Below, in pieces: positions 8,335-49,137 of a stretch of 64,000 nt of DNA. The stretch is taken from positions 2,896 through 66,895 of the forward strand of contig JACUUY010000001.1 in assembly GCA_014859085.1 (NCBI GenBank). Reading direction: 5' to 3'. Under the pieces are notes generated by a model that did not search any database, was not told where the DNA came from, and saw nothing but the letters and a program-made list of their open reading frames with translations. Source of the DNA: a candidate division WOR-3 bacterium (lineage in GTDB: Bacteria; Hydrothermota; Tepidihabitantia; SM23-42). The position numbers and the translations under genes were made by a program. Every line of letters begins with the position of its first letter. Positions within the stretch are counted from its first letter, which is position 1.

Positions 8335-8340
8335 TATAGC

Positions 8341-8368
8341 AGTATACGTTGCCGCGCCGTATTGTCAA
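8341..8368 (-). promoter_or_regulatory. sigma70 promoter (TTGACA, 16 nt, TATACT) 6 nt upstream of the TTG start of the UPF0104 gene; leaderless geometry
   Basis: Minus strand reads cATTGACAatacggcgcggcaacgTATACTgctataTTG. Confidence 0.5.
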
Positions 8369-8383
8369 TGAAAATGTAGAACG

Positions 8384-8411
8384 TTGACACGTCCACCGAT
8401 TAATCTATAAT
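8384..8411 (+). promoter_or_regulatory. sigma70 consensus promoter (TTGACA, 16 nt, TATAAT) 6 nt upstream of the methyltransferase ATG; leaderless geometry, divergent from the 8341..8368 promoter
   Basis: Plus strand reads cgTTGACAcgtccaccgattaatcTATAATcgtggcATG. Confidence 0.55.
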
Positions 8412-8417
8412 CGTGGC

Positions 8418-9236: not shown

Positions 9237-9248
9237 ACATCTGTTCAC

Positions 9249-9276
9249 TTGACATATACAATTCCGCTGCTATACT
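9249..9276 (+). promoter_or_regulatory. sigma70 promoter (TTGACA, 16 nt, TATACT) with an approximately 180-nt leader before the FG-GAP gene
   Basis: Plus strand reads cacTTGACAtatacaattccgctgcTATACTttcgg. The downstream gene has an AGGAGG Shine-Dalgarno sequence 4 nt before its ATG at 9461. Confidence 0.5.
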
Positions 9277-9460
9277 TTCGGTAAGAAGAGTCAGGAACGA
9301 TAGTACCGGATATTGTTTGGTGAGATATGAGTCTGCATTGCGGCTGTGAATCATACCGTGCTGTATTCACCAGCGAGTGGAGAATAAGGGCCCCGGTGGC
9401 GAGAATGTTCACATATTTTTCACACGCAAAGTGTATAATTTGAAAAAAACAGGAGGAAGT

Positions 9461-11578
9461 ATGGTAAGTAGATACATAATCGTAGCACTATTGCATGCTG
9501 CGCTGTGTTTCAGCCAGAATGCGTGGGTTGAGACAAGTCAGAGTGATTTCCGGGACGGCATTTACGAGAGAAACATCTACGCTTCGCACCGTGGTGGCGG
9601 TGCGGTCGAATTTGCCCCCAGATTCGATCTGAACAATGACGGCTATTTTGACCTGTTTGCTGCCGACCGGTTCGGTCCATATGTCCGCATTTATTGGGGT
9701 AGTACCAGCGGTTATTCGGCGGGTAATGTCACCCTTTACCCGAGCAGCGGTGGTGCGAACTGCGATGCGGCAGACCTTGACGGCGATGGATACGCCGAAT
9801 TCATCGTTTCCCACTACTTTGAGAAGACTTCAATCTATTGGGGCAGTGCCAGTGGCCCTGATCCACAGAATCACCTGGACCTACCGATGATCGCCTGGAA
9901 TCGGCAGGGAGTGTTTGTTGCTGACCTCAACAAGGACGGTTATCTTGATATCGCGACAACACAAGAGATCGTATCAGGCAAAGCTGCCATCTTCTGGGGT
10001 AGTGCCAGCGGATACAGCATAGGCAACCGTACGGATCTACCCTGCAACTTCGGAATTCACAATATTGAGGTCGCTGATTTTGACCAGAACAACTGGCTGG
10101 ACATTCTGTTCGTCGTGTACGCGGGGGATTATTATGGTTATATTCTCATATATTGGGGCAACGACACGGGATTTCAGGCATCTAATGTAACCGTTCTTCC
10201 AGGCCCATCAGGGAACACCGGCGTTTCGGTCGCCGATCTAAACGCCGATGGCTACATTGATATCGTAAGCACGGGCTGGTACGATACGCAGTCTTACTTA
10301 TATTGGGGCAGCGCAGGGGGTTATTCATCGTCCAGCGTGCAGATTCTTGACCCGGGATATTGCTACGGTGGCAGTTCAGTTGCTGACTTCAACAATGACA
10401 CATATCTTGATATCCTCTACCATCGCGGAGGATATGGGACCGCTTGTCAGATTATCTTCTGGGGCAGCGCGTCAGGGTATGCGAACAGCAACAGCAGCGA
10501 TATTGGGATTCCACTTGAAACCACAGGCGGATTGATAGCCGACCTCGATTACGATGGGGACCTCGATATCTTCGTCAACACACGAACCCCTGAATACCAT
10601 AGTTTTGTCCTTTCCGCTCCTTCGTTTACGCCAGTTGCATCATTACCGGTGATCGAGGACCACCACGCTATGTTCCGCGAAATAGGCAACGTATACAACC
10701 GCGAATACCATGAGGATTACGGTTCCTCGGTCTTCGATGCCGGTGCCGCAGCGAACTGGGGTGTGCTCGAATGGGAGGCAACGACGCCGACCGGATCCTC
10801 GGTCCTCTGCTGGGTGCGCAGCGGTAACGCGCCTCTGCCGGACAGTTCGTGGTCGGACTGGCAGCCGATGGCCAACGGCGGTGCCATCCCGGATGTACTG
10901 AACGCACGCTTCCTGCAGTACCGGGCGCGCCTTAGCTACACCAATCCCTGTTACCTGCCATCACTCAATGAGGTGAGTGTCACCTATGAAAGCGCCATCA
11001 GTCTGATCGCGTCGCTGAGGATAACGCCGGAAACGATCAACCTGCAGAGTCATGGTAAATTCACGGCATTCATAACCCTGCCGGCTGGCTACGATCATCG
11101 CAGTATCGACGTCTCGACTGTGTGCTGCCATGGAGCAAATGCCTCATCGGGGCACGCCACGCCGAATTTCTATATCGCGAAATTCAGTGTTCAGGACCTT
11201 GTGGGCGTAATACCCGGCCCGGCGGTCGAATTCGTTGTGACCGGACAGCTGTTCAACGGCACTGATTTTATCGGTTACGACACGGTGCGCGTGATCGGCG
11301 TCCCGTCCGCCGATGTCGCGTGCCGTCCCAATCCTTTCAAGACGAAAACAACGATTTCGGTCGTGCGCGCCGAAGGCGAGAAGGTGCGGATTAAGATCTA
11401 TGATGTCAGTGGAAAACTGGTGCGGACTTTCGATCAGACGCAGTGCCGGGACGGCACACAATCAGTGGAATGGGATCGAACCGATAACAGCGGCCGCAGG
11501 GTCGCGGCCGGCATATACCTGTATCACGTTGAGGGGATCGGTTCGGTCTCCAGGCAGAAGATCATCGTGCTGGATTGA
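9461..11578 (+). CDS. FG-GAP/VCBS-repeat (integrin-alpha-like beta-propeller) protein with signal peptide and T9SS C-terminal sorting domain
   Basis: The start is placed at the internal ATG preceded by AGGAGG, not at the track start 9377. Signal peptide MVSRYIIVALLHAALCFSQNA. Seven D-x-[DN]-x-D-G-[YW]-x-D-[IL] + IYWGS repeats. C-terminal Ig-like por-secretion tail KIYDVSGKLVRTF...AAGIYLYHVEG. Confidence 0.7.
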   Translation: MVSRYIIVALLHAALCFSQNAWVETSQSDFRDGIYERNIYASHRGGGAVEFAPRFDLNNDGYFDLFAADRFGPYVRIYWGSTSGYSAGNVTLYPSSGGANCDAADLDGDGYAEFIVSHYFEKTSIYWGSASGPDPQNHLDLPMIAWNRQGVFVADLNKDGYLDIATTQEIVSGKAAIFWGSASGYSIGNRTDLPCNFGIHNIEVADFDQNNWLDILFVVYAGDYYGYILIYWGNDTGFQASNVTVLPGPSGNTGVSVADLNADGYIDIVSTGWYDTQSYLYWGSAGGYSSSSVQILDPGYCYGGSSVADFNNDTYLDILYHRGGYGTACQIIFWGSASGYANSNSSDIGIPLETTGGLIADLDYDGDLDIFVNTRTPEYHSFVLSAPSFTPVASLPVIEDHHAMFREIGNVYNREYHEDYGSSVFDAGAAANWGVLEWEATTPTGSSVLCWVRSGNAPLPDSSWSDWQPMANGGAIPDVLNARFLQYRARLSYTNPCYLPSLNEVSVTYESAISLIASLRITPETINLQSHGKFTAFITLPAGYDHRSIDVSTVCCHGANASSGHATPNFYIAKFSVQDLVGVIPGPAVEFVVTGQLFNGTDFIGYDTVRVIGVPSADVACRPNPFKTKTTISVVRAEGEKVRIKIYDVSGKLVRTFDQTQCRDGTQSVEWDRTDNSGRRVAAGIYLYHVEGIGSVSRQKIIVLD

Positions 11579-16399: not shown

Positions 16400-17680
16400 C
16401 TAATAACCGGCGTCAATGATTCCGGGCGGCAGGTATTTGTACAGGGTCGGCTGGCTTCTTTCACCGATGGCGTTCGTCCAGACCAGGACGTAATCGTTCA
16501 CGCCCCGGATGTCCACGAAGACGAACTGCTGTCCATTAACATACTGCCAGTGTTCGTATGGTTTGGATTCATGCAGTTGCAGCGGCAGAGGGAATTCGAT
16601 CTCGTCTGGTTGACCGTACTTCACGTGTATTCGCCCGCGGTCGGTCTTGCGGCCGGGAGTATCACCGAGCCGGTAATGTTCATCGGCATACTCGAATCGC
16701 TCGGCGATCTCGTTGTAGTTATGGGTACGCCAGAATCTCTCGAGGTAGGCTTTCTTGCCGTCACCGGGCAGTTGCTTGAATTTATTGTAGTCTCTCGGAT
16801 CGAGAAAATATTCGATCTCGTCGTAGAAGGGCATGCCTTCAAAGCTGACCTCACGTTGTTTCGTATCCGCTATCCTGAACCACGTTGCCTTCTCGGCGAT
16901 CGGGTTCGCATGATTGTCCTCGATCGCGACCGCAAGCCGGTATTCACCGGCCGGAATGTTCTGAATATCGATGCCGCAGTCCACCGCTTGCGACGTAAAG
17001 GCCTTCTCTATCTTTCTTGTCACCTTGCGGATGGTCTTGCCTTCGCCATCAGTGACTGTGTACACCGCGGTCAGTGTATCATTGTCCGGCGTGATGTCGT
17101 ATATTTCATAGTAGAAGAACAGATGCCGGAAGCGGCTGTCGAACAGACGGGATGGCCGCGGGATCACCCGCAGGTTGCCCTTTCTCAGGTTGTCGCCTGC
17201 CGTATCGATCGTTATCTCGCTGGCCAGATTGATGTCGCTCAGTGTGTACCGCTCCCTTGTTATCTCGAGCTCGTCTTCGGATATCCCGCGCTTGGCGCCG
17301 GACAGCAATTCGATGCGATACTTGAACCGGCCTTCGGTGGCATAGGTGCCGAACTGAACGAGAAAGGAGAGCTGTTCCTTTGCCGCGTATGAGAACGACG
17401 GGATCGTGAATTGCCGGTAGAGCGTGTCGATCAGCGAATCGGCATGGTCGAGGTCGATGAGCGCGAACGGCATAACGGCGTTCGCGTAGATGATCTTCTC
17501 GGCCGATTGATATTGCAATTCCTGGTAAGGGATCTCGCAGTTGAATTCGATATAATACACTTCCTCGGTCGTCAAAGTGTGTTCCACGGTATCTTCCAGC
17601 TCGATATGTTCCCGGTAGACAACGGGGTCAGCAAAGAATCTTATGTCACCGGCTGATAACAATAGGGCAAGGAGCATCAT
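16400..17680 (-). CDS. GWxTD-domain protein (paralog 1), secreted
   Basis: The start is placed at the internal MMLLALLLSAGD signal-peptide Met, to avoid a 100-bp overlap with the upstream paralog. C-terminal TPGRKTDRGRIHVKYGQPDEI...YEHWQY...FVFVDIRGVNDYVLV matches the GWxTD domain signature. Confidence 0.55.
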   Translation of the reverse strand: MMLLALLLSAGDIRFFADPVVYREHIELEDTVEHTLTTEEVYYIEFNCEIPYQELQYQSAEKIIYANAVMPFALIDLDHADSLIDTLYRQFTIPSFSYAAKEQLSFLVQFGTYATEGRFKYRIELLSGAKRGISEDELEITRERYTLSDINLASEITIDTAGDNLRKGNLRVIPRPSRLFDSRFRHLFFYYEIYDITPDNDTLTAVYTVTDGEGKTIRKVTRKIEKAFTSQAVDCGIDIQNIPAGEYRLAVAIEDNHANPIAEKATWFRIADTKQREVSFEGMPFYDEIEYFLDPRDYNKFKQLPGDGKKAYLERFWRTHNYNEIAERFEYADEHYRLGDTPGRKTDRGRIHVKYGQPDEIEFPLPLQLHESKPYEHWQYVNGQQFVFVDIRGVNDYVLVWTNAIGERSQPTLYKYLPPGIIDAGY

Positions 17681-18729
17681 CTTACCCCCGATCCCGTGGG
17701 GTTGGCAAGCACGTACTGACCGAACCCGTGACGGTCGACGAAGATGAACCGCAGATTGTCCCGGTAGTACAGCCATACTTCATACGGGAAGGAGTCGATT
17801 TCGTAGGGATAGCGCTGGATCTCGTCGGGCGACCCGTGTTTTACAAAGATCCGCGCCCGGTCACTGCGCCAGCCGCGGTCGCCGCCTGAGAAGTTCTTCT
17901 CGGCGTAGGCGATCCGCTCAAAGTACTCGACCTCTTTTTCATTGTATGCCGTGTTCGGCGTCGGATCCAAGTTCTTCCAGAATGCGGTCCACAGCGAATC
18001 GCGGGTCGAAACCTCGGACTGTTTCAGGACCTTCATTTCGGATGGTGTCGCGATGTACTGCAGTTGATCCACTTTCAGCGACCAGGTTTTCTCATCAAGG
18101 TAGAATGGTCGCGTGACTTTGACCGGCACGATGGACTCGTCGATCTTCCTTTGTTCCGCATAGATGAATAATTTCAACTCATAGTCATCGATCGGAAGTC
18201 CGCCGACGTAGAACATGAGGGATTCGGCATGAGTGCCCCGACGGGCCTTCGTTGTACTTCTCAAATCCTCTATCGCCGCCGCTATGCTGTCGATATTGCC
18301 ATGCTGGTTGAGAACGGTGAACCTTAAATACATTGTATCATTCTTGACCGTATAGTGAATGCCGGCCAGGTTCCTCGCCTGGGCGAGCTTCTGGCTTGCC
18401 GTGAATATCTCACCGGCATGCAGGTCAAGAATCCTCAGCACAAAATAGTCGCCGTCTGCCGGGATGTGGAGCTTGACCGAATCCGCGATGCCGGCCGCCT
18501 CTTCGCCTTCGGAAACCTGCCGCCGCCAGTAGTCGCCGGTCAGTTGGCGGTTCGTCTTGTCATACAGCGTGAGTTGGATCTCGTACCGGGCACGGAAATC
18601 ATTCCCGGCGGAGATGTACTGCAATTTTTGCCTCGGTATGTTAATGTACGTCACGAGTTCCTGCAGTGAATCACGATGCACCCGGGTCATGGCCTGGTAC
18701 TCGATCTGGAAGAAGAGGAAAAATATCAT
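17677..18729 (-). CDS. GWxTD-domain protein (paralog 2)
   Basis: 350 aa. C-terminal GGDRGWRSDRARIFVKHGSPDEI...YEVWLY...FIFVDRHGFGQYVLA. It shares N-terminal and C-terminal similarity with 16400..17680 (tandem duplication). AAGGAG Shine-Dalgarno 9 nt before the ATG. Confidence 0.55.
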   Translation of the reverse strand: MIFFLFFQIEYQAMTRVHRDSLQELVTYINIPRQKLQYISAGNDFRARYEIQLTLYDKTNRQLTGDYWRRQVSEGEEAAGIADSVKLHIPADGDYFVLRILDLHAGEIFTASQKLAQARNLAGIHYTVKNDTMYLRFTVLNQHGNIDSIAAAIEDLRSTTKARRGTHAESLMFYVGGLPIDDYELKLFIYAEQRKIDESIVPVKVTRPFYLDEKTWSLKVDQLQYIATPSEMKVLKQSEVSTRDSLWTAFWKNLDPTPNTAYNEKEVEYFERIAYAEKNFSGGDRGWRSDRARIFVKHGSPDEIQRYPYEIDSFPYEVWLYYRDNLRFIFVDRHGFGQYVLANPTGSGVR

Positions 18730-18742
18730 ATGATTTCTCTCC

Positions 18743-21073
18743 TTATTTCTTGCTGGGGAATACTCTGTTCAACGCTTGTTCGATCTTTGACGCGAAGATG
18801 AATGACAGTCCGGTGCGAACGTGCCTTGGGATTTCCTGCAGGTCTTTTTCATTCTCCTTTGGCAGCATGATCTTTGCGATGCCGGCTCTCTTTGCGGCAA
18901 TCACTTTTTCCTTTATGCCGCCGACCGGCAGGACGCGTCCGGAAAGCGTGATCTCACCGGAAAATGCGATCTTGGGATCGATCGGTTCGTTCCTCATCAG
19001 TGAAGCCAGAGACATTACCACGGCAAGACCCGCTGAAGGACCGTCCTTGGGAATGGCGCCGGATGGAATGTGCACGTGGAGTTCCTGGTTCTCAAAGCCC
19101 TCTTCCTCGATCCCCCACCGTGTCAGCTTTGTCTTCAGATACGAGAGTGCGGCCTGGCACGATTCCTTCATGACATCCCCGAGCAGGCCGGTCAGTATCA
19201 GTCCCTTCTTCCCCCTGGTTTGCAGCGATTCGATGAAGAGTATCTCGCCGCCGTAAGGCGTCCAGGCAAGCCCGGTGGCCACGCCGACCTGTCCGGCGCG
19301 CGCGGCAACCTCACCAGGGATCTTCTGGGGCCCCAACAGGCGGGACAGGTTCTTCGCGGTGATCCTGCTCTTGCCGCGTTTGCCTTCGGCAACGCGCTTG
19401 GCTACTTTGCGGCAGATGGATCCGATCAACCGCTCGAGATTTCTCACGCCCGCCTCTTTTGTATAGTTGCTGATGATGTTCTTCACGGCCTCGTCTTCAA
19501 AGGCAATGCCGTTTGATTTCAACCCCGTTTCACTGATTTGGCGCGGGATTAAGTATTTCCGGGCGATCTCCAATTTCTCCTCGAGGATGTACCCCGGCAG
19601 TTCGATTATCTCCATGCGGTCTCTCAGCGCCGGGATTATCGAATCGACGACATTACCCGTGGCGATGAACATGACGCGCGATAGATCAAAAGGCACTTCA
19701 AGATAATGGTCGGAAAAAGCGTTATTCTGCTCGGGGTCGAGCACCTCGAGCAATGCCGAGGATGGATCGCCGCGGAAATCAGCGCCCACCTTGTCGATCT
19801 CGTCGAGCATGAATACTGGATTGTTCGTCCCGCAGTTCTTTATCGACTGAATGATGCGGCCGGGTAAAGCGCCGACGTACGTTCTGCGGTGGCCGCGTAT
19901 TTCGGCTTCGTCCCGAATGCCGCCCAGGGATATCCGAATGAATTTCCTTTCCAGGGCGCGGGCGATGGATTTGCCGAGCGAGGTCTTGCCGACACCGGGC
20001 GGTCCGATGAAACAGAGGATCGTACCCCGGGAATCGGGTTTTAGTTTCTTTACGGCAAGATATTCAAGGATCCTTGATTTCACTTTCTCCAGATCGTAAT
20101 GGTCCTCGTCGAGGATCCTCTGCGCCCGGCTGATATTGATGTTATCCTGCGTCGAGATCGACCAGGGTAATGAGACGAGCCAGTCTATGTATGTACGGGA
20201 AACCGTGTACTCGGCAGCCTGGGGCGGCATCTTTGCGAGACGGTCTAGTTCTTTCAGCGCCACCTTGTTGGTCGGCTCCGGCATTCTGGCTTCCATTATT
20301 TTCTTTCTCAGATCCTCCACTTCCCGCGTCTGCTCGTCCGTTTCACCGAGTTCGCGCTGGATCGCTTTCAGTTGCTCCCGGAGATAGAATTCGCGCTGGC
20401 CTTTGTCCAACTCGCTCTTCACGTCAGAGCGGATCTTGGCGCCGAGTTCGAGGATACTGATCTCCTTCTGGAGCATCGGGATGAGCCGTGTGAAGCGTTC
20501 CTTGGGATCGGTTAGCTCGAGCAGAGTCTGTTTTTCGTTGTAGTCGAAGTTGATCGTGCTGGTCACGAAATCGATCAGATTGTCGGGATTCTCCATGTTG
20601 AGGACGACCGCGGCGTATTCATCGGGCAGGTAGGGTGCGAGCGAAACGAGGTGCTGGAACATCACAACCACGTTGCGGACCATTGCCTCGAGCGCGACCG
20701 TCTTCCGGTAGGCCGGGGCAATGGTCTCGATCCTGGCTTTCAGGTACGGTTCTTGCTGCGTGAATGTGGCGACCCTGAAGCGTTTGAGTCCTTTGATCAG
20801 CAGCCGTATCGTGCCGTCCGGGAAACGGAGCATCTTTGTGATCTGAATGACGCAGCCGACCGTGAAGACTTCATCGGGCCGCGGATCCTCGATGTCCGGA
20901 TTGCGCTGGGTCAGGGCGCACGCAAGTTTGTTCGTCGTTAGCAGTTCATCGATCAGTTTCGCAAGTTTCGGCGTGTGGATGATAAGCGGCACTATCTGAT
21001 CCGGGAATATCACACCCCCTTTGATCGGAATGATGCCTAATTCTTCAGGTATCTTTATCGAAGTGTCGATCAA
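18743..21073 (-). CDS. lon: ATP-dependent Lon protease (La)
   Basis: 776 aa. Lon N-domain, Walker [16 protein letters not shown], and S16 protease motif [19 protein letters not shown] start. Confidence 0.9.
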
Positions 21074-21225
21074 TTATAGCCCGCCTTTGGTTTCCACCGG
21101 CCTTTGCCGGTTGATGGGCAAAACGGCGCCAGGTATCGCTCCAACGGCGCGCACGCCCGTTATTCTTCCCTGCAATTTGGACAGCATACCGCAGAGGATG
21201 TTTATCTCACTCTCGGCACGCGCCA

Positions 21226-21654
21226 TCAGTCTCCTTCAACCGGAATGATCTTCTCCTGCAGGGTTTTGCACTCGATCTTCAGGATGCCGTCCGTAACCTC
21301 ATACCGGTACTGCTCCGCCTCGACCGGGATCGGGAAGTCTATTCGGCGATAGAATGCGCCGAACGGTATCTCGAAGGTGTGGAAGATGCAGCGCTCTTCG
21401 GCAATGTCCGGTGGTGGGGTACGATTCCCGGCGATGATCATGTGTCGGCGGTGGAGGAACACGGCTGTGTTCTGCAGGGCGACGCCTGGAAGTTCGATGT
21501 GTACGATTATCGCTTCGCTCGTAGTGTAGAGATTGTACAATGGTTGCCATCCCGTGATCTCGGAGAAGATACCGATGTCCCCGTGGTCAATGCTCTCGCC
21601 GACGATGAATCTGAGGCCTTTTTCCCGGCAATTGTTCGCGGCCGATCGCTTCAA
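21226..21654 (-). CDS. Hsp20/alpha-crystallin family small heat-shock protein
   Basis: 142 aa. The alpha-crystallin domain pattern W.P...L......IVHIELPGV....V........IAGNR....FEIPFGAFYRRIDFP..V......Y...DGILKIECK is present. There is a 4-nt ATGA overlap with the upstream HEAT-repeat gene. Confidence 0.55.
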   Translation of the reverse strand: MKRSAANNCREKGLRFIVGESIDHGDIGIFSEITGWQPLYNLYTTSEAIIVHIELPGVALQNTAVFLHRRHMIIAGNRTPPPDIAEERCIFHTFEIPFGAFYRRIDFPIPVEAEQYRYEVTDGILKIECKTLQEKIIPVEGD

Positions 21655-23843
21655 TCCGTTCTCTCCTCGGCGGCGGCGGTGATGCGCTGCAGAACATCCT
21701 GGGCCGTACCGGCGATGAAGCGGTTGCGGCTGTTCGCCGCTTTCTGCAACACCTGCATGGCTTTTGGCGTGCTGATCTGCGCCAGGGCATTGAGCGCAGC
21801 CGCTTTGGTCGGCTGCAACAGGCTGCGCTTGAACAAGACACGGTCCTTGACGACGGCGATCAAAGCGTTCACGACCGCGTCCTCCTTGCTTTTAGCAATA
21901 GCCTGGATGACCGTGGTCCGGAAATGCTCTTCGGTCTCGTCCGGTATCGACTTCTGTCTCTTCAGCCACTGCAGCACCCTGGGGAGTTTTGTTTTGAAAT
22001 CCTCCGGATCCAGGCACTTCATTGCCTCGAGCGTGACCTGTGGGTTTTTGCTGTTCAGTGCTTTCTTGATATACGCGGTTGACCTGGCGCCGCCGATCTT
22101 GTTGAGACTTGCAATCACCTCGAGCTGGATCTGGATGCTTTCTTCGTTGATCAATTTGCCGATATCGTCGATTGCCGATTCTGCCTTCAACTCGCCCAGG
22201 ATGAAAACGCCATTACGCCGCGCATACCACTCATCCGCCTCAAGCAGCCTGAGAATTTCGGGGATGGCCTTGTCGCTCATCCGTTTCAGTGTGTCAAGGA
22301 TCTTCATCCGGACCGCGTAGTCATCGGCCTCGCGCAGTGTCTGGACCAGCATCGGCACGGAATGGTCGGCAATTGCGATCAGAGCTTCCCTCGCTTCACC
22401 GTAGGTGCCCGGTGCCCACAATGAGGATAGCAATTCGGGAACGTATGTAGGATCGCGTGTCTCGCCGATGGCCTTGATCACAAAGCGCTTCCGTTCATGG
22501 AATATCGTATCTTTACGCATCAGGTATTTGGCGAATTTCTTGGCGATGAATTCCATTACCTCGGCATTGTTCCGGTCCCGCGCTTTTATATAGAGTATCT
22601 TCATCGCATCGATCGCCTTGGCGAACGCGGCAAGGTCGGATTCGGCCTCGGCCATCGCATCGAGGCGGTTAGCCATGAGGCAAACCAGATCGAAATTCTC
22701 GGCTTCGAACAGGCGGTCCGCGAACGCGACCAGTTCATCAACCGCATTGACCCGTTCTTCGATCGATTTGCTGCGCAGCACCGGGAAGTGGCTCTTCATT
22801 TCCATCTCGAGGTGTTTGATCGAATACTTGAGCGCCGACTCGCTGCTCTTCGTCGTCCTCACCCTTTTCAGCAACTGATCGATGAAGTCATGCGTGTACA
22901 CATCCGGCGCGCGTTCTCCGAGCGTCGTCAGGATATCGGGCAGCTTTGTGCTCGATACATTCCTGAGGATGTCAACGACCTCTTTGTCCGAATCCGGCGT
23001 CTTCTTCCTGGCGATCGTGGTAATGATCTCGACGATGTCCTCGTCGTCCATGGTCGGCACCAGCTTGCGGAACATGTCAACCAATTTCGCGTTCTCGGAC
23101 CGGTACCGGATGATGTTCTTCTTGACCGAGGGCGACAGGATGGCAAGGATCCTCGAGAATACCAGCGAGTATTCGTGCCACCTTTCCTCGCCATACCGGT
23201 CCTTGATCCTAAGCGAGAGTTTTTCGAGTCCGGTCAGTATCTTCTCGGCCTGCGTGTCCATCGAATCTTCTCCGGTGATGCCAAGTGCGCCGAGGAAATT
23301 ACCGAGTTCCTTGAGTCTATCTTCTTCGGTCTTGGGCGCTTCCGATGTAATGATCGATTCCAGGAAGTTATCCCAATCCAATTCGCGAAATTCATCCTCC
23401 GAGGTCACGACGCCGACACGGTAGATGTTCACCTTGATGCCGGTGATCGCACGAAGGCGCAACACGACCGCGACATCGCCGTAGTCATCGATCTCGGCCG
23501 GCGGCAAGGCCATGACCGAGAAGAATTCCTTGAGATCGTGCTCGCCGGCTTCGGTGTTGAACGTGATGCTGTTCACGCCCACTTGGGTGCATATATCGAT
23601 CAGGTATTTCACGATCGGTATTCTTGCCGAATCGAAGCGCTCGTCATCGATCTTCAGTACACTTTCGATGATGATTATCGAGACGACCCGCTTTTCGATC
23701 CGCAGTTCGTCGAACAGCGCCCGCAGGCGGTGGATCGTGCGATCCATGGACGGGTGACCTTCTGGATAGGTGCGCGCAAGGTAAATGCCCATCCTCAGCA
23801 GTTTAAGCAGGTCGTCGTATAGCTTCAGTACATTCTCTTCCAT
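21651..23843 (-). CDS. HEAT-repeat (PBS-lyase-like) protein with unknown N-terminal domain
   Basis: 730 aa. The C-terminal half has repeated AVR..A...LG..KA..A...LL...D.D..VR..A..AL-type HEAT motifs (AVRMKILDTLKRMSDKAIPEILRLLEADEWYARRNGVFILGEL...). It is translationally coupled to the genes on both sides. Confidence 0.6.
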   Translation of the reverse strand: MEENVLKLYDDLLKLLRMGIYLARTYPEGHPSMDRTIHRLRALFDELRIEKRVVSIIIIESVLKIDDERFDSARIPIVKYLIDICTQVGVNSITFNTEAGEHDLKEFFSVMALPPAEIDDYGDVAVVLRLRAITGIKVNIYRVGVVTSEDEFRELDWDNFLESIITSEAPKTEEDRLKELGNFLGALGITGEDSMDTQAEKILTGLEKLSLRIKDRYGEERWHEYSLVFSRILAILSPSVKKNIIRYRSENAKLVDMFRKLVPTMDDEDIVEIITTIARKKTPDSDKEVVDILRNVSSTKLPDILTTLGERAPDVYTHDFIDQLLKRVRTTKSSESALKYSIKHLEMEMKSHFPVLRSKSIEERVNAVDELVAFADRLFEAENFDLVCLMANRLDAMAEAESDLAAFAKAIDAMKILYIKARDRNNAEVMEFIAKKFAKYLMRKDTIFHERKRFVIKAIGETRDPTYVPELLSSLWAPGTYGEAREALIAIADHSVPMLVQTLREADDYAVRMKILDTLKRMSDKAIPEILRLLEADEWYARRNGVFILGELKAESAIDDIGKLINEESIQIQLEVIASLNKIGGARSTAYIKKALNSKNPQVTLEAMKCLDPEDFKTKLPRVLQWLKRQKSIPDETEEHFRTTVIQAIAKSKEDAVVNALIAVVKDRVLFKRSLLQPTKAAALNALAQISTPKAMQVLQKAANSRNRFIAGTAQDVLQRITAAAEERTD

Positions 23844-24490
23844 TAGCCTCTCAATTTAAGCTGGTACTCGTATGCCTGAACGCCAAGAGATTCTTCCACG
23901 AATTCGCCGACTTCACGGTAGGCAAAGAATCCCTTGGTGACCCGGTATAGATTCTCACCGACAAGAATAGTGTTGCTCGCGGCGTTCTTCTGTAGTATCT
24001 GGCTCTTGCGGAATCCCTTGGTCAGGATCAGTGCATTTCTCACGTTCTGGTTAAGGTCGAAGATCGATGCAGGTTCGATCTCGGCGCCAACCTTGAGACC
24101 GATCGGGCTCTTGAAACTCCCCTTTTTGTTGAAATCGAACAACTTATTGAACATTTCCTCGGCGGTCAATATCGCCATGTGAGGCGCGAACCCCGATTCG
24201 AGATCGAGCCCGAAGATGCTGACGATCTCGTCACCGATCACCTGATATATGGTCCCTTTGTTGGCCGATATGATCTGCGCAAAGACGCTGAATATCTCGT
24301 TGAGCAGGGCCATGACGTCTTCGGCGATCATTGCTTCGCTCATCGTGGTGAACCCGGAGAGGTCGACGCGCAGGAAGGTCAGTTTCAGATCATCGAACGG
24401 TGAGGCGGTCTGATCGCGGAGGGCCGCCCCGCACCACTGGCAGAAATTGAGTGCCGGCGCGGTTTCTTTCTGGCAGCTATTGCATACCAT
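23843..24490 (-). CDS. Zn-ribbon plus class III nucleotidyl cyclase homology domain protein (small subunit; degenerate Arg position)
   Basis: 215 aa. N-terminal CxxC...CxxC (MVCNSCQ...CQWCG). The cyclase domain retains both metal-binding Asp motifs (LRVDLSGFT; VIGDEIVSIFG) and the Asn (KNAASN), but has Asn in place of the transition-state Arg (ASR->ASN). Alignment was done by eye. Confidence 0.55.
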   Translation of the reverse strand: MVCNSCQKETAPALNFCQWCGAALRDQTASPFDDLKLTFLRVDLSGFTTMSEAMIAEDVMALLNEIFSVFAQIISANKGTIYQVIGDEIVSIFGLDLESGFAPHMAILTAEEMFNKLFDFNKKGSFKSPIGLKVGAEIEPASIFDLNQNVRNALILTKGFRKSQILQKNAASNTILVGENLYRVTKGFFAYREVGEFVEESLGVQAYEYQLKLRG

Positions 24491-24491
24491 G

Positions 24492-27400
24492 CTATATCTC
24501 CAGCAGTTTCGAATATTCCGGCCGGCGCGTGTAGTATTGACGGTTCGCGCTGCTCAGTCGCGACTTGATGTCGTCATAAACGAGGAGTGCTTTTCGGCCG
24601 TAGTAGCGGGCTTGTTCGATGTTATCTTTTTGAAGAAAAACGAGAGCAATTCGGTATAGCGCATCGGCGATCAACGGCGGCAGTTTCATGCGTTCGGCCA
24701 GGTCCAGCGCTTTCTTCGCGTCTTCCATGCCGTGATTCTTGTCGATCATGGACCGCAGTATGTAACACTGGAATTCGATCTCGCGCTGATTCGACCTTTC
24801 TGCAATCTCAATGCTGTTAAGCGCGTAGTCGCTGGCTTTCTTGTAATCGCGGCTGTTATAGTGGACGAGGCCTTTTTTCAAGGCGATCTCAGCGAGGAGG
24901 CTTTCGCGAACGAGAAAGGACATCTTGCGATCGACGTCCTTAAGGTAGTCGGCGACCCGGTCTGATTCGCCGTTCAGAGAACAGATGCAGGCGAGGTCGA
25001 GCGCCGATCTGATGTACGCGTCGAGACTACCGACCGAATCCGCGGTCATCAGACACTCGCTGAGCACATTCTTTGCCTTCTCGATATTCCATATCTCGTA
25101 GTCAACGCCGGCAACGAGATATTGCAGTTCAATGTTTTTTCTGATGTCCGCGACATCGACGAGGATCTCCAGCCCGTATTGAAGATATTCAAGGGCTTTT
25201 TCGTAGTTGCCCAGACCCTTATGCAACCTTGACAGGTTTAGCAGGCAGAGTATCTCGGCTTCCTTAATGTCATTTGCGCGGGCCGTCCGCCAGCTGAGAT
25301 TATAGTTCAACAGGCAACTGTCATATTCATAGCGGCTTGCATAGAGCATTCCCAGGTTCGCGTAAAGAATGGGCAGGATGTGCGTCATCTGCTCATCACA
25401 TTTCTCAATGCTCGAAACAAGGAGTTCCTCGGCCTGCTCCGTGCGGTTGAGCAGGATCAGTCCATAGGCCGCGCGTTCGGCAAAGAGCACGGCGTTCTTA
25501 TTGTCGTGGTCCTGACGCGCTTCGAACAACCTCTCGCGGGCAGTTTTCTCCATCTTGCTGATGTCGCCCTTGATCTCATAAATGTCTATGATGTTGAGCA
25601 TGATGTCGCGGTACAGGTCTTTTGGCAGATCGTAGCTATGATCTTTCTTGATACTGAGCACTTGTTCATAGAAGGCAAGCGCCTGGTCGATCGCATACAG
25701 ATTCTTGGCTTTGTCGCCGGCAAGCTTGTAGTACTTCGTTGCGTTGTGATACTGGTCGCAGGCGAGGTAGTGCTGCGCGACATCTTCATAAAATGAGGAA
25801 ATGTTGTCGGCGTAGATCTGCTCGAACAGACCGGCAACCTGAAAATGCACTTCCTTGCGTTTCCGGACCGGCAGGACCGTATAGGCCGCATCGCGGAGCA
25901 GATTGTGCCGGAAGATGTATATCGGGTCATCTCCGGCGGCGGATAAGACGATATATCCCTCGGCGTTCAACTGGTCAAGATGCTCCTGCAGGTCGGGCCG
26001 GGGCAGGAGTTCCCTCAGAATACGGAGGCTGAAACGGTAACCGATCACCGAAGCATAATCGATTATGAGGCGCGCATCCAGGGTGAGGGAATCGATCGTC
26101 GACATGACCATGCCGTACAGGTCATCGAGGAAGACGAGGGTCTGTTTTCTTGCGAGGTACCATTTGCCGGCGGTCTGGTGGATTATCTTGTTGCGTCGTG
26201 TGTTGCGAATGGCTTCGATCGTGAAGAGCGGGTTACCACCGGCTTCGCGGTAGATGAAATCAGTGAGGCTGTCATCGACATTACCCAGGATATGCTGCAC
26301 GAGCGCGTAGATGTGTTGTCGTGGGAGCGGCTTGAGGTCTATTTCCTCGATGCTGGTCGATCCCGGCAGAGAGCCATGATCGGGCACGTTCACGAGCACG
26401 AACATCACTGGTTCCTTCTCCAGTTCGAACATCAAGTATGCAAGGAGCTCCCTGGACATCAGGTCGGCTTGGCCGCATTCCTCAAAGATGAGGATCAGCG
26501 GTTTCCGGTGGGATTCGTCCCGGACGATATTAAGCATTGACGCGTAGATCTCTTCGTTGATCATGCGCAGCTCATCGCTGCGAAGGCGTCCGATGTCGGT
26601 CAGCAGCAGATGCTTGATCCCTTTGGCCAGTGCCGCATTTAGGGTCTCTCCGACGACCATGGCCTCGATGCGTTTGTTTATGCTTTGTTGGTTGTCGAGT
26701 TCGTGCAGTTGCAGCAAGTTTCTGAGCAGGGTCCTGAACGGGAAGTAAGGTGATTGAACGTCGACCGAGCAGTTCGTCTCGAGGCAGAGGACTTCATTGC
26801 TTTTGTGCAGGTGGGCCTCCAGCTCCTCCTTGAGTCGTGTCTTACCGATCCCCAGTTGTCCATTGATGACGCAGCGTAATCCTCCGTGTTTGACTGATTC
26901 CTGAGCAAGCGTGAGCAGTCGCTGCAGTTCAGCTTCCCGGCCGAACAAAGGCATGCGCATTGGTTCGGCCGTGCGGGGCGTGGTTCGGATCTTCTGGAGC
27001 CGGTAAATGTCGACTTTTGTTTCTTTGCCTTTGAGGGTCTGCTCGCCGATGTGCTCGGCGTCAATGTAGCGAAAAACCGCGTTATGTGTGGTTCGGCTCA
27101 TGAGGATCTCGCTCTGCTGGCTCATCTCGGTCAGCCGGGCGGCGGTATTGATGCTGTCGCCGATCACGGTCAGGAAGGGCGATTCTTTGAGCACGAAGCC
27201 GAAGAATGCCCGGCCCGTGTTCATGCCGATCCTGAGATCGGTATCTTTGAGAAACTTCGATTCTTGTTTGTTTTTCAGCCACCAGTCCCGGATGCGGCTG
27301 GCGCAGCGTGTCGCCCTCAGGGCGTCGTCATGATGCGCTTGCGGCGCGCCGAAAATGGCGAGGATCCGGAAATCCGGGATGATACGGTTCGACGTACCGT

Positions 27401-27665
27401 TGTACTCGTCCACAATTTCCTCGATATTACGGAGGAATTGCTGGATATGTTCACTTGTCGCAGCGTATGTGTCCTTCCTGATCAGCCGGTCGATGCCGCT
27501 CAGGTTGACGAAGAATACGGTGAGGAGCCTGAGCTCGCCGCCCAGGAGCCGGAGCCGCTCAGACTCCATTGCGGCGGGTGGCTCCGCTTTCAATGCGGTA
27601 CCGCACCGTGTGCAGAAAATTGCATTATCAGGTATATCCGGAAAATTACAGAGCAGACACTTCAT
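24492..27665 (-). CDS. Zn-ribbon plus class III cyclase homology domain plus STAND/AAA NTPase plus TPR-repeat multidomain protein
   Basis: 1057 aa. N-terminal MKCLLCNF...CTRCG zinc ribbon. The cyclase domain has Asn replacing the first metal Asp (FFVNLSGI) but keeps the second Asp (IIPDF..AIFG) and the Asn/Arg motif (VIGDSINTAARL). Walker A GQLGIGKTRL. The long C-terminal region is TPR-like. Confidence 0.7.
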   Translation of the reverse strand: MKCLLCNFPDIPDNAIFCTRCGTALKAEPPAAMESERLRLLGGELRLLTVFFVNLSGIDRLIRKDTYAATSEHIQQFLRNIEEIVDEYNGTSNRIIPDFRILAIFGAPQAHHDDALRATRCASRIRDWWLKNKQESKFLKDTDLRIGMNTGRAFFGFVLKESPFLTVIGDSINTAARLTEMSQQSEILMSRTTHNAVFRYIDAEHIGEQTLKGKETKVDIYRLQKIRTTPRTAEPMRMPLFGREAELQRLLTLAQESVKHGGLRCVINGQLGIGKTRLKEELEAHLHKSNEVLCLETNCSVDVQSPYFPFRTLLRNLLQLHELDNQQSINKRIEAMVVGETLNAALAKGIKHLLLTDIGRLRSDELRMINEEIYASMLNIVRDESHRKPLILIFEECGQADLMSRELLAYLMFELEKEPVMFVLVNVPDHGSLPGSTSIEEIDLKPLPRQHIYALVQHILGNVDDSLTDFIYREAGGNPLFTIEAIRNTRRNKIIHQTAGKWYLARKQTLVFLDDLYGMVMSTIDSLTLDARLIIDYASVIGYRFSLRILRELLPRPDLQEHLDQLNAEGYIVLSAAGDDPIYIFRHNLLRDAAYTVLPVRKRKEVHFQVAGLFEQIYADNISSFYEDVAQHYLACDQYHNATKYYKLAGDKAKNLYAIDQALAFYEQVLSIKKDHSYDLPKDLYRDIMLNIIDIYEIKGDISKMEKTARERLFEARQDHDNKNAVLFAERAAYGLILLNRTEQAEELLVSSIEKCDEQMTHILPILYANLGMLYASRYEYDSCLLNYNLSWRTARANDIKEAEILCLLNLSRLHKGLGNYEKALEYLQYGLEILVDVADIRKNIELQYLVAGVDYEIWNIEKAKNVLSECLMTADSVGSLDAYIRSALDLACICSLNGESDRVADYLKDVDRKMSFLVRESLLAEIALKKGLVHYNSRDYKKASDYALNSIEIAERSNQREIEFQCYILRSMIDKNHGMEDAKKALDLAERMKLPPLIADALYRIALVFLQKDNIEQARYYGRKALLVYDDIKSRLSSANRQYYTRRPEYSKLLEI

Positions 27666-27688
27666 AATTATCGATAATTCCCTTTCCT

Positions 27689-27717
27689 ATTATATCGCAC
27701 CGGTTCAAATCTTTCAA
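27689..27717 (-). promoter_or_regulatory. sigma70 promoter (TTGAAA, 17 nt, TATAAT) for the cyclase/HEAT/Hsp20 operon
   Basis: Minus strand reads cTTGAAAgatttgaaccggtgcgaTATAATaggaaagggaattatcgataattATG (24-nt leader). Confidence 0.5.
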
Positions 27718-27803
27718 GAAGATTATAAGCAAATTTCACGATACGTCAAGATTGCGTGTTCTCGAGAACATTGCATCATGTTCCGCCATGAATATAATAG
27801 GGC

Positions 27804-28871
27804 GTGAAGGAGAATTTCAAAAAGTATTCGCTGAATGAAGCCCGGTCTGCGATGCTTGCGCTGGGGTGTGATAGGTACCGTGGCGACCAGGTCTTCAAGT
27901 GGATCTGGCAAAAAGGCGCTTTGGATTTTTCGGTCATGACGAATCTCTCAAGGGAATTGAGGGAAAGTCTGTCCGAACGCTACCTCGTTGCGGGGTTGAG
28001 TATGGCCGGCGCGGGACAGCAAGGTGTTGGAGCTCGACAAGAAGGTGCCGGAGTGCGCAAGTACCTGCTCGGTGCAGGAGACAATGAGGATGTTGAATCG
28101 GTGTACATCCGCGAGGCGAGGCGGCGCACGGTCTGCGTGTCCTGCCAGGTGGGTTGTCCATTGGGCTGCAGATTCTGCGCCACGGCTCTGCTCGGTTTCC
28201 GGCGCAATCTTCATGCGTACGAGATCGCGGATCAGGTGCGCCTCATCCAGCAAGTTACCGGGACTAAATGCACCAATGTCGTGTTCATGGGTATGGGCGA
28301 GCCATTGTTTAATTTCAATGGGGTCGTCGGGGCCCTCGAAATAATTACCTCACCGCTCGGTCTCAGCATTGGCCGGCGGCATACCACGTTGTCCACGGTC
28401 GGTCTTGTGGAAGGTATGGAGGCATTGTTGAGATCATCGATCCGGGTCAAACTGGCGGTCTCGCTCAACTTTGCGGATGAGGAACAGAGGAGAGAATTCA
28501 TGCCGGCCGCGCGACATAATCGGCTGCAGGACATATTGAAGGTCGCGCGGGCATACTCACTGAGAAAAGAACGGGTCACATTCGAATACGTGATGATCCG
28601 GCATGTTAACGATCACGTCCGTGATGCGAGGAGATTGATCGAGCTGCTGAAGGATGTACCGTCCAAGATCAATTTGATCCCGTACAACGAGCACCCGCTC
28701 CTTCCCTACAAAAGGCCCACTGACGCCGTGATCGAGAGGTTCCACGGAATACTTCTGCAGTCAAACCATACCGTGGTCATCAGAAAATCAAGGGGGCAGG
28801 AAATCCTCGCCGGCTGCGGGCAGTTGAGCGGTGCTGACCGCGTATTGACTTCAAGCAAGACATCTGTATAA
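27804..28871 (+). CDS. rlmN: 23S rRNA/tRNA adenine-C2 methyltransferase RlmN (radical SAM)
   Basis: 355 aa. Radical-SAM motif CQVGCPLGCRFCAT with a downstream conserved Cys. It contains a Gly/Ala-rich low-complexity insertion (SMAGAGQQGVGARQEGAGVRKY). GTG start 7 nt after a TATAAT. Confidence 0.8.
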   Translation: MKENFKKYSLNEARSAMLALGCDRYRGDQVFKWIWQKGALDFSVMTNLSRELRESLSERYLVAGLSMAGAGQQGVGARQEGAGVRKYLLGAGDNEDVESVYIREARRRTVCVSCQVGCPLGCRFCATALLGFRRNLHAYEIADQVRLIQQVTGTKCTNVVFMGMGEPLFNFNGVVGALEIITSPLGLSIGRRHTTLSTVGLVEGMEALLRSSIRVKLAVSLNFADEEQRREFMPAARHNRLQDILKVARAYSLRKERVTFEYVMIRHVNDHVRDARRLIELLKDVPSKINLIPYNEHPLLPYKRPTDAVIERFHGILLQSNHTVVIRKSRGQEILAGCGQLSGADRVLTSSKTSV

Positions 28872-28955
28872 TGATTGGACGTAACGCATTGATTTGTAGG
28901 ATATCTGGACTATTTTTTTGAGGAAGTTGTTCATGCTTGATCAATAACGGGAGGC

Positions 28956-30260
28956 ATGATGGGCAAGACCTTGGCGGAGAAGATGTTATCCGAGAAAAGC
29001 GGCCAGGATGCGTGCGCCGGCGGTATTGTGATCGCCCGCGTCGATGTTGCTGCTTTCCAGGACGGCACCGGTCCACTGGGCGTACGCCAGCTTCAGAAAA
29101 TGCATCTGGAAAAACTCCGGGCGCCGAAGGCAATTCTGTTCATCGACCACGCTGCGCCTTCGCCTCGCAAGGAACTCTCAAACGACCACATGCTGTTGCG
29201 GGAATTCAGTCGGAAATCGGGCGCCATACTGTCCGACATCGGTGAGGGTGTGATCCATCAGCGGCTGGTCGAATCCTATGTCAAGCCCGGCGATGTTGTG
29301 ATCGGCGCCGATTCGCACACGTGCACGTCCGGCGCGCTCGGCGCGTTTGCGACGGGCATGGGTTCGACCGACGTCGCGATCGGGATGGCAATGGGCCGCA
29401 CCTGGTTCAAGGTTCCCGAGACGTTCCGGGTCGAGGTGAAGGGTGATTTTACACCGGGCGTTGGTTCCAAGGATCTCATTTTGTATCTCATCGGTCTGCT
29501 GGGTGCTGACGGCGCGACGTACAAGGCTCTGGAGTTCGGTGGCCCGGCGATCGAGAAAATGTCTATGGAGTCGCGGTTCGTTCTTGCCAACATGGCGGTG
29601 GAGGCAGGAGCCAAGACCGGGTTGATCGCGTCGGACCGAATAACGAAAGAGTATTTGAGATCACGCGGCCGCACCAAGGATTGGCGCGCGCTGGCGCCGG
29701 ATAAGGATGCGGAATATGAGCGGGTGATCGAGATCGACGCGCGTAAACTCGTACCCCAGGTTGCCTTTCCGCACACGGTTGACAACACCAGGAATATCAG
29801 CAAGGCGCTGGGGATAAAGGTCGATCAGGTATTCCTCGGCACGTGCACGAATGGACGCATCGAGGATTTGAAGATCGCGGCCCAGATCATCAGGGGCAAA
29901 CAGCGCGCGCCCGGCACAAGATTGGTGGTCGTACCGGCATCGCGCGACGTCTTTCTGTCAGCAATGAAATCAGGGTTGCTGGACGTATTCGTGCGCGCGG
30001 GCGGCATTGTCCTGGGTCCGGGTTGCGGGCCGTGCGTCGGGGTCCATCAGGGCATTCTCGGCGACGGCGAGGTCTGTCTCTCGACCGCCAACCGCAACTT
30101 CCGCGGCCGGATGGGCAACCCTGAGGGCCTTGTATACTTGGCTTCGCCGGCGACCGCCGCCTACTCGGCGATAAAGGGCGAAATCAGCGATCCGAGAGAT
30201 GTGTATGCAAAGAAGCGCCGGCGTGGTAGAGTCATGAAGCCGCGGCGGAAGAAGAAATAG
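28956..30260 (+). CDS. aconitase-family large subunit, short archaeal LeuC/homoaconitase type
   Basis: 434 aa. Aconitase Fe-S ligand motifs (GADSHTCTSGA, GTCTNG, GPGCGPCVG). It ends in a polybasic tail AKKRRRGRVMKPRRKKK. Confidence 0.75.
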   Translation: MMGKTLAEKMLSEKSGQDACAGGIVIARVDVAAFQDGTGPLGVRQLQKMHLEKLRAPKAILFIDHAAPSPRKELSNDHMLLREFSRKSGAILSDIGEGVIHQRLVESYVKPGDVVIGADSHTCTSGALGAFATGMGSTDVAIGMAMGRTWFKVPETFRVEVKGDFTPGVGSKDLILYLIGLLGADGATYKALEFGGPAIEKMSMESRFVLANMAVEAGAKTGLIASDRITKEYLRSRGRTKDWRALAPDKDAEYERVIEIDARKLVPQVAFPHTVDNTRNISKALGIKVDQVFLGTCTNGRIEDLKIAAQIIRGKQRAPGTRLVVVPASRDVFLSAMKSGLLDVFVRAGGIVLGPGCGPCVGVHQGILGDGEVCLSTANRNFRGRMGNPEGLVYLASPATAAYSAIKGEISDPRDVYAKKRRRGRVMKPRRKKK

Positions 30261-49124: not shown

Positions 49125-49137
49125 ATTTGAGAATAGA

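Follow-up and report, generated by a model that had tools for sequence, protein, structure and literature searches.

What four consecutive minus-strand genes in a candidate division WOR-3 genome do, and which of them belong together, is the question raised by the locus described here. The genes, denoted A, B, C, and D, lie in a 64,000-nt stretch of contig JACUUY010000001.1 (the window, to which all coordinates refer) and are followed by lon (Table 1). The original prediction, made from the DNA letters themselves, read them as a single translationally coupled operon and as the best candidate in the window for an undescribed signaling or stress module. We confirm the four open reading frames (ORFs) on the minus strand, and Pfam agrees with the naming of A as a cyclase–STAND–TPR protein, B as a small cyclase, C as a HEAT-repeat protein, and D as an Hsp20, the last marginally. 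The conserved unit, however, comprises three genes, A-B-C, and not four. We propose, with somewhat more conviction than doubt, that these three genes make up a phylum-wide WOR-3 signaling cassette, in which a split, heterodimeric cyclase would be combined with a regulatory protein C. Its central feature, overlooked by the original prediction, is the complementarity of the two catalytic half-sites carried by A and B.

Table 1. Coordinates of the genes, domains, and candidate DNA elements of the locus (aa, amino acids; nt, nucleotides; AF2, AlphaFold2)
Feature	Residues (aa)	Position (nt)	Strand	Description	Basis
Gene A		24492..27665	-	1057 aa; Zn-ribbon, class III cyclase, STAND NTPase, TPR	Pfam and alignment
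A, Zn-ribbon	3-21	27603-27659	-	CxxC...CxxC	
A, class III cyclase homology domain	48-223	26997-27524	-	C2-like	Guanylate_cyc
A, STAND NTPase	239-423	26397-26951	-	AAA_16; Walker A GQLGIGKT	
A, helical arm and TPR sensor	~438-1057	24495-26354	-		
Gene B		23843..24490	-	215 aa; Zn-ribbon and short C1-like cyclase domain	Pfam and residue counts
B, Zn-ribbon	2-24		-	DUF7575/DZR	Pfam
Gene C		21651..23843	-	730 aa; novel alpha/beta N-domain, then HEAT solenoid	AF2, alignments
C, alpha/beta N-domain	1-140	23424-23843	-		AF2
C, all-helical solenoid ending in HEAT repeats	~155-730		-		AF2, Pfam
Gene D		21226..21654	-	142 aa, TTG start; divergent Hsp20/alpha-crystallin	Pfam HSP20
lon		18743..21073	-	LonA; next gene after D	TIGR00763
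Conserved sigma-70-type promoter candidate		27722..27749	-	TTGACG-16-TATAAT, 11/12 matches; upstream of A	
Window-specific promoter candidate of the original prediction		27689..27717	-	TTGAAA-17-TATAAT, 11/12 matches	
Bipartite DNA motif		21176..21205	-	WTAAACRT-N13-YTGTCMAAA, in the Hsp20-lon spacer; candidate regulatory/promoter element of lon	

A and B both carry an N-terminal Zn-ribbon and a domain that scores above the Pfam threshold for Guanylate_cyc (PF00211; cutoff of 21.9 bits), at 45.1 bits in A and at 28.7 bits in B, the latter being a partial match over residues 38 to 135. For the domain in A, the alignment with CyaB (3r5g; E = 3e-13) extends over 180 residues. The AAA_16 NTPase of A (67.7 bits against a cutoff of 32.6) has a Walker A motif, GxxxxGK[ST], that is preserved in all 34 A proteins, and A is thus probably a functional NTPase. 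TPR matches are found toward the C terminus, each one below its Pfam cutoff. With a P-loop, a helical arm, and a repeat sensor discernible in its sequence, A reads as a STAND NTPase of the AAA_16/MalT-like clade.

We aligned the A and B orthologues with class IIIb CyaB of P. aeruginosa (3r5g), used as the reference, and with Cya2 (2w01), and counted the residues that occupy the catalytic positions. Among 33 A orthologues, the position of the first metal-binding Asp is filled by Asn in 20, Ser in 6, Gln and Lys in 2 each, and Gly and Asp in 1 each, with 1 sequence unaligned, such that 31 of the 32 aligned orthologues lack this Asp. The second metal position holds Asp in 31 and Glu in 2, the base-recognition Thr and the transition-state Asn are invariant (33 of 33 each), the transition-state Arg is retained in 32 (Lys in the other), and a K/R-G phosphate motif is found in 32, with the exception reading VRS. 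The 37 B orthologues complement this pattern. Both metal Asp residues are invariant (37 of 37 each) and the phosphate-Arg position is always Lys (37 of 37); the Thr position is hydrophobic (Leu, Ile, Phe, Met, or Val; Thr in 0 of 37), the Asn position is filled by Ala, Arg, Lys, and others (Asn in 0 of 37), the Arg position by Ile, Leu, Val, and others (Arg in 1 of 37), and the K/R-G motif is absent. The corresponding residues in the window are N54 (first metal Asp position), R94, D98, R145, T166, N173, and R177 in A and D43, Q83, D87, K133, L154, R161, and I165 in B. Neither chain carries the full catalytic set, which takes both A and B to complete.

Class III cyclase active sites span the dimer interface: one subunit supplies the metal Asps, and its partner supplies the Asn and Arg residues and those for base recognition. 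Given this arrangement and the residue pattern, A·A and B·B dimers would be incomplete, and an A·B dimer would hold one complete and one degenerate site. We infer that A and B each contribute one of two complementary cyclase halves and that only the A·B heterodimer would form a complete site, an interpretation that we modestly favor. The pattern recurs in L045, a more distant cassette, in which A has neither metal Asp (Lys and Asn instead) and keeps Lys, Thr, Asn, and Arg, and B has both Asps and lacks Asn and Arg; it recurs as well in L050, from a Candidatus Hydrothermales genome. At the Lys-equivalent base-recognition position, the 33 A orthologues have Arg (15), Lys (7), or other residues (11). 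The predicted product is most likely cyclic AMP (cAMP), because Thr occupies the class IIIb base position and Lys or Arg occupies the Lys position in 22 of 33 sequences.

A scan for related loci, with one genome per GTDB species, returned 36 loci, all of them from WOR-3, "Stahlbacteria," or unnamed metagenome-assembled genomes (MAGs); A, B, C, D, Lon, and RlmN were mapped onto each locus (designated by L numbers), and the junctions were measured. Wherever flanking sequence exists, A, B, and C are adjacent and in the same order, in a total of 33 WOR-3 species-level loci that have all three genes. The junctions range from −8 to +3 nt, C identity falls as low as 32%, and protein lengths are nearly constant at 1056 to 1070 aa for A, 212 to 219 aa for B, and 723 to 737 aa for C, with L043 shorter (977, 191, and 704 aa, respectively). 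L045 again has A-B-C, with a C protein of 922 aa, and in L050, whose lineage we take to belong to WOR-3, the genes are instead arranged B-C-A. C of the window is 100% identical to a WOR-3 protein in NCBI. All homologues of C come from WOR-3 and measure ~725 to 735 aa, and B-type proteins form 122 clusters of ~212 to 220 aa that bear WOR-3 names only. The original prediction had all gene boundaries overlapping by 1 to 4 nt. In the window, B and C do share 1 nt (TAATG), and C and D overlap by 4 nt, conditional on a TTG start for D that is preceded by a Shine–Dalgarno-like GAGGAG and from which Hsp20 orthologues align from residue 1; A and B are instead separated by a 1-nt spacer (TAG c ATG).

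The upstream neighbor of A is mostly a divergent rlmN and elsewhere asnA or pdxJ. In the window, the wider flanks comprise gyrA, genes for PHP, NYN, and GWxTD proteins, and lon on one side, and rlmN and the genes for aconitase, citrate synthase, and isocitrate dehydrogenase on the other; the window is a housekeeping chromosome segment, and GC content across A-B-C is uniform at ~0.53 to 0.56. RlmN of L003 is 67% identical to that of the window, compared with 67, 77, and 70% for A, B, and C, and in L001 the values are 51% for RlmN and 46, 50, and 47% for A, B, and C. Cassette identities thus track those of RlmN, a pattern of vertical inheritance. In two MAGs assembled as complete chromosomes, L016 (CP070802.1) and L036 (CP070795.1), A, B, and C seem to be lost or truncated. 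We discounted this, as each case coincides with a run of 100 N that replaces A, or A together with B and the N-terminal part of C; upstream of each gap, the sequence is unrelated. Such runs mark scaffold gaps or masks and not gene decay, and L016 and L036 are therefore unusable for scoring the presence or absence of the cassette. A-B-C is a conserved, and probably core, regulatory circuit in an uncultured phylum.

The third component, C, has Pfam matches to HEAT_2/HEAT_PBS only, and these are confined to its C-terminal third. An AF2 model of full-length C from a 27-sequence alignment has a mean predicted local distance difference test (pLDDT) score of 81.5, with a low-confidence linker at residues 142 to 153. 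The N-domain modeled by itself, in a structure prediction that the original prediction had proposed, is a confident alpha/beta fold (pLDDT of 89.9; predicted template modeling score, pTM, of 0.85), and its invariant residues include Y26-P27-x-G29-H30-P31, E46, E60, S92, D120, G122, and N139. The earlier statement that the N terminus of C matches no known motif holds: the N-domain has no match in Pfam or in a profile search of Protein Data Bank (PDB) sequences. When the fold of full-length C was compared with the PDB, only generic HEAT/ARM scaffolds came up (SF3b, PP2A-A, and importins). We also considered docking of an EEVD-like acidic C-terminal tail of C onto the TPRs of A and rejected it, as the tails are not conserved.

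The N-domain defines a family that extends beyond the cassette. A profile search of 1.84 billion representative proteins (clustered at 50%) found 299 homologues with E ≤ 1e-3. Among the top 149 matches to profiles of the WOR-3 C proteins, ~45% combine the N-domain with helical repeats (640 to 960 aa), and the rest are mostly N-domain-only matches. From the N-domain homologues we singled out 51 with an unusual architecture (proteins are designated by P numbers). Eleven of these, of ~1400 aa, combine GGDEF, AAA_16, N-domain, and HEAT, and 10 of them have two stretches of N-domain; 6 join the N-domain to an HD_5 domain of the HD-GYP type (~450 aa); and 2 contain histidine-kinase domains, of which P0083, checked in detail, is organized as N-domain, PAS, HisKA, and HATPase_c. 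In the GGDEF-containing P0082, the helical arm that follows the NTPase aligns with residues 438 to 670 of A (E = 8e-12) and runs straight into two N-domains (residues ~665 to 785 and ~841 to 981), followed by HEAT repeats. As judged from this alignment, P0082 is a Rosetta-stone protein in which an A-like cyclase–STAND part is joined to a C-like part, the latter occupying the sensor position. Among stand-alone C-like genes not of the WOR-3 type, that of L046 adjoins a GAF–GGDEF gene and that of L008 overlaps an HD_5 gene; no second-messenger enzyme was seen as a neighbor of the C-like gene in L047, and the contig of L049 is too short to judge. In five of six informative cases, the C family is tied to nucleotide second-messenger enzymes. 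The L047 protein (P0074, encoded at 8001 to 10739 of that locus) belongs, with ~12 similar representatives, to an N-domain/HEAT subfamily of 866 to 918 aa with an extra N-terminal extension of ~225 aa that has no Pfam match and precedes the N-domain; its gene is followed by an unannotated gene of 370 aa, and its surroundings showed no cyclase gene.

The likely role of C is that of a sensor or regulatory subunit, because its N-domain behaves as an input domain in GGDEF–STAND, HD_5, and histidine-kinase proteins. The same placement has a second interpretation, which we consider unlikely: C could act downstream of the cyclase, as receptor or effector for the nucleotide that A·B makes, with the N-domain binding the messenger and the HEAT solenoid altering its interactions with targets. 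Ligand-binding regulatory domains usually stand where the N-domain stands in the HD_5 and histidine-kinase proteins, N-terminal to the output, and Pfam reveals no alternative receptor candidate in the cassette. GAF domains bind messenger in phosphodiesterases and cyclases, and weak Foldseek matches of the N-domain to GAFs that bind cyclic nucleotide monophosphates (cNMPs; PDE6, PDE2A, and CyaB2) recur at E = 0.6 to 1.9. These matches, however, are far below significance (probability ≤0.13, TM-score ~0.2) and interleaved with PCNA, and with no Pfam match to GAF either, we rejected a GAF assignment. Moreover, the N-domain contains no recognizable nucleotide-binding motif, and the N-domains placed C-terminal to the NTPase in the GGDEF–STAND fusions fit an input role at least equally well. 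In either case, the N-domain is an unannotated domain family, and the identity of its ligand would annotate hundreds of signaling proteins.

With C as a sensor or regulatory subunit, the cassette might operate as follows. A, B, and C would be transcribed from their own conserved sigma-70-type promoter candidate and, with translation coupled, be made together. A signal would be recognized via the C-terminal TPRs of A, and via C, and the STAND NTPase would turn this signal into nucleotide-dependent oligomerization that positions the cyclase domain of A. This domain and B would then be aligned or assembled into an active heterodimer that makes a cNMP, probably cAMP, with C serving as a sensor or regulatory scaffold of the A·B complex; the Zn-ribbons of A and B may, speculatively, help coassembly. 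More tentatively, and with greater reserve than confidence, we raise the possibility of a STAND-gated A-B-C signalosome, that is, a class III cyclase that is an obligate heterodimer encoded by two genes, the first such in bacteria, and is governed by the "YPxGHP" N-domain of C as a cytoplasmic sensor domain not recognized before. If so, the N-domain would also gate HD-GYP-type phosphodiesterases, histidine kinases, and GGDEF–STAND diguanylate cyclases in many phyla, and would be a new and widespread input or receptor domain in the networks of nucleotide second messengers.

Several observations weigh against this scheme. Heterodimerization is deduced from residue patterns and gene linkage, and A of L038 has an Asp at the first metal position. 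The variability of the Lys-equivalent position of A makes substrate and product uncertain, and some orthologues may not be cyclases. The pTM of 0.47 for full-length C leaves its domain arrangement uncertain, and the N-domain has no significant Foldseek neighbor in the PDB (best E = 0.27). Finally, A has a TPR sensor of its own, which leaves the need for C as a sensor unexplained, and C could be downstream of the messenger.

The lack of a full catalytic set in either protein, together with the variable Lys-equivalent position of A, would also be expected if A and B were pseudo-enzymes that make no cNMP and whose cyclase domains only dimerize or bind nucleotide within the STAND scaffold, and catalytically inactive cNMP cyclase domains have been described in other NTPase-based systems (PMC7159879). 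We regard this as improbable, since the residues that persist make up precisely two complementary halves of a single active site and are nearly invariant over deep divergence, an outcome that neutral decay would not produce.

The complementary-halves interpretation finds its closest parallel in mammalian adenylyl cyclase C1·C2 and soluble guanylyl cyclase (sGC) alpha/beta, which have one catalytic and one degenerate site. As in these enzymes, one subunit supplies the Asp pair (C1-like, here B) and the other the base-recognition, Asn, Arg, and Lys residues (C2-like, here A). Unlike them, A and B are separate chains from neighboring bacterial genes, A is fused to a STAND–TPR module, both carry Zn-ribbons, and neither has membrane domains or heme-NOB or G-protein regulation. 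Chytrid RGC/NeoR heterodimers are reportedly a recent analogue from microbial eukaryotes. To our knowledge, bacterial class III cyclases have been described as homodimers, and our literature searches found no counterexample.

Proteins with the domain order of A are known. The Mycobacterium tuberculosis proteins Rv0386, Rv1358, and Rv2488c are cyclase–NTPase–TPR–LuxR proteins, and these, like part of the TIGR03903 model, share with A a class III cyclase, an AAA_16/STAND NTPase, and TPRs in one chain. A differs in lacking a LuxR helix-turn-helix or kinase domain and in having an incomplete cyclase, the small partner B, and the linked C. The best NCBIfam match of A is to the cyclase–NTPase–TPR part of TIGR03903 (E = 6.6e-53, model positions 263 to 918); assignment of A to this TOMM kinase/cyclase fusion family was rejected, because A reaches only 180 bits (cutoff of 706) and contains no kinase domain. 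The GGDEF–STAND–(N-domain)x2–HEAT fusions (P0082 and 10 others), unannotated metagenomic proteins, share with the cassette a cyclase output, an arm like residues 438 to 670 of A, and the N-domain with HEAT repeats, and are in effect A and C in one chain; they differ in that the output is a diguanylate cyclase and not class III, there is no B-like partner and no TPR, and the N-domain is duplicated. Pycsar systems share the class III-type cyclase fold; A-B-C differs in having no effector gene and a weak, generic similarity to PycC. Avs proteins share the combination of a STAND NTPase, a TPR sensor, and an N-terminal enzyme; the A-B-C locus differs in being a housekeeping locus that is vertically inherited.

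Full-text literature searches found no bacterial heterodimeric class III cyclase, no cyclase–STAND–HEAT operon, and no description of a WOR-3 cyclase, and the earlier view that the module is undescribed thus appears to be correct. Three elements in particular appear to be undescribed, none having turned up in these searches: a two-gene bacterial class III cyclase, apparently an obligate heterodimer, in which one half is the output domain of a STAND switch; the invariable linkage of this cyclase to an N-domain/HEAT protein; and the N-domain family itself. Cyclase–NTPase–TPR proteins and catalytic complementation between cyclase domains are each already known in principle. If A·B is an obligate heterodimer, a C1/C2-type division of labor, deemed a eukaryotic elaboration, arose in bacteria as two genes, and its coupling to a STAND switch would offer a simple system in which to study oligomerization-gated cyclase assembly.

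The original prediction regarded Hsp20 as a candidate downstream partner and placed the operon immediately upstream of lon, features that suggest a four-gene stress module in which the cyclase–STAND protein acts via the HEAT protein and Hsp20 and is tied to Lon. In the window, D does overlap the C stop codon by 4 nt, and no terminator-like site was found on the minus strand from A to lon, so that read-through is possible; the order C-Hsp20-lon-GWxTD is held in 10 related loci. Yet lon lies 152 nt past D, and the run of Hsp20, lon, and GWxTD after C is restricted to the window's own clade, whose C proteins are ≥66% identical to that of the window (D follows C only in L003/L004/L012, L009 to L016, and L036). 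Even there, the C–D gap, which ranges from −4 to 136 nt, is mostly 91 to 136 nt. Outside the clade, no locus has Hsp20 or lon after C, and the place is taken instead by a convergent PolX (L001, L006, and L007), by PGA_cap (L005), or by others. Gene order across related genomes thus strongly supports the A-B-C link and fails to support the link to Hsp20 and lon. D passes the PF00011 HSP20 threshold marginally (23.0 bits against a cutoff of 20.8) and falls far under the cutoffs of the NCBIfam Hsp20 and Hsp14 models, as a divergent member would. The lon product matches the LonA equivalog TIGR00763 at 932 bits (cutoff of 608), with LON_substr_bdg, AAA, and Lon_C all present, and is by these profiles a housekeeping LonA and not of the CalpL or BrxL type; its gene, moreover, has its own conserved upstream motif. 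Hsp20 and lon are ordinary heat-shock and proteolysis genes, neighbors only and outside the cassette, and there is little to recommend a stress module of this kind; the tempting but incorrect connection of a cyclase, Hsp20, and Lon can be set aside.

A role in Pycsar- or Avs-type anti-phage defense, in which the STAND–TPR module would sense a phage protein and a cyclase-made messenger would trigger abortive infection, is highly improbable despite the STAND, TPR, and N-terminal enzyme architecture and weak PADLOC matches to PycC (A, E = 1.2e-8; B, E = 8.5e-7), since the PycC matches (E = 1e-8 to 3e-3) reflect generic cyclase-domain homology, PADLOC gave weak PycC, TPR, and HEAT matches only and none to Avs, CBASS, or effectors, no transmembrane (TM), TIR, or nuclease effector was found in the cassette, and the locus is a conserved housekeeping one (rlmN and tricarboxylic acid-cycle genes on one side, lon and gyrA on the other) of uniform composition and nearly constant gene lengths, with no mobile-element genes, neither patchy strain-level presence or absence nor a variable-island location, and a divergence that parallels RlmN across the phylum, opposite to the behavior of defense islands. 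The original prediction had rightly noted that no CAP/cNMP, TIR, or TM effector is present (none was found in the cassette by Pfam or PADLOC) and that the locus is not recognizable as Pycsar or CBASS; we rejected Pycsar membership on the weak PycC matches and the absence of effector-type domains from B, C, and D. The analogy to Avs that it drew does not survive, as this is a stable locus, often divergent from rlmN and diverging in step with it, that is conserved in 33 species-level loci and is not a variable island, with no PADLOC match to Avs.

Upstream of A, the single good promoter of the original prediction, TTGAAA-17-TATAAT, is present in the window and is not kept in orthologous loci; TTGACG-16-TATAAT scores equally and is the conserved one. 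A TTGAC[GA]N-N16-18-TAnnnT element lies 35 to 114 nt 5′ of the A start in 18 of the 19 loci examined, the window included, and may act as the promoter of the cassette. A third promoter-like site is weaker than these two, and promoter-like sites over 9.5 kb are not in excess (6, compared with 6.1 in shuffled sequences). A search of Rfam over 17000 to 29000, which includes the 5′ untranslated region and spacers, gave no riboswitch or other RNA element match at E ≤ 1. In L003, L013, and L014, the A leader between the conserved promoter candidate and the start codon contains a perfect 10-bp palindrome, GGCTTAAGCC, once or twice per leader (twice in L014); it is weaker in L025 and not found in the window, and could be either an operator or a small repeat element.

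The Hsp20–lon spacer differs in length (56 to 157 nt) and sequence among the loci of the window's clade except for a bipartite motif, WTAAACRT-N13-YTGTCMAAA, which has identical spacing in 10 of 10 loci (the window, L003, L009 to L011, L013 to L016, and L036). This motif bears no apparent resemblance to the consensus sequences of sigma-70, CIRCE, or HAIR; in WOR-3 it may serve lon specifically, as a promoter or an operator. The spacer of the window contains a 50-aa ORF (21074 to 21226, minus strand) that starts at the Hsp20 stop codon (TGATG) and ends with a TAA abutting the TTG start of lon, in the frame of lon. We rejected this ORF as a gene, since the peptide is not conserved and frames and stops differ between loci; the "INI...LSK" likeness across loci stems from the conserved DNA motif, of which the ORF is probably a by-product.

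Directly 3′ of lon, at 16400 to 18729 on the minus strand, are the genes for a GWxTD-domain protein (350 aa) and for a 458-aa protein that matches nothing in Pfam and, in related loci, weakly resembles the GWxTD protein (as a second GWxTD tblastn match); both genes keep their place beside lon across the clade. On the other side of the cassette, related loci have an acylphosphatase gene (95 aa) between rlmN and the aconitase gene (e.g., L003, 4653 to 4940), and the corresponding interval of the window, 28872 to 28955, is only 84 nt long and lacks this gene. Finally, GC content, 0.53 to 0.60 in the window background, dips to 0.49 to 0.50 at 8001 to 10000, which overlaps the gene for an FG-GAP/T9SS-sorting-domain protein (9377 to 11578), and at 46001 to 48000 and 52001 to 54000, which flank a 1090-aa ORF (49072 to 52344); these are possibly acquired or surface-protein regions.

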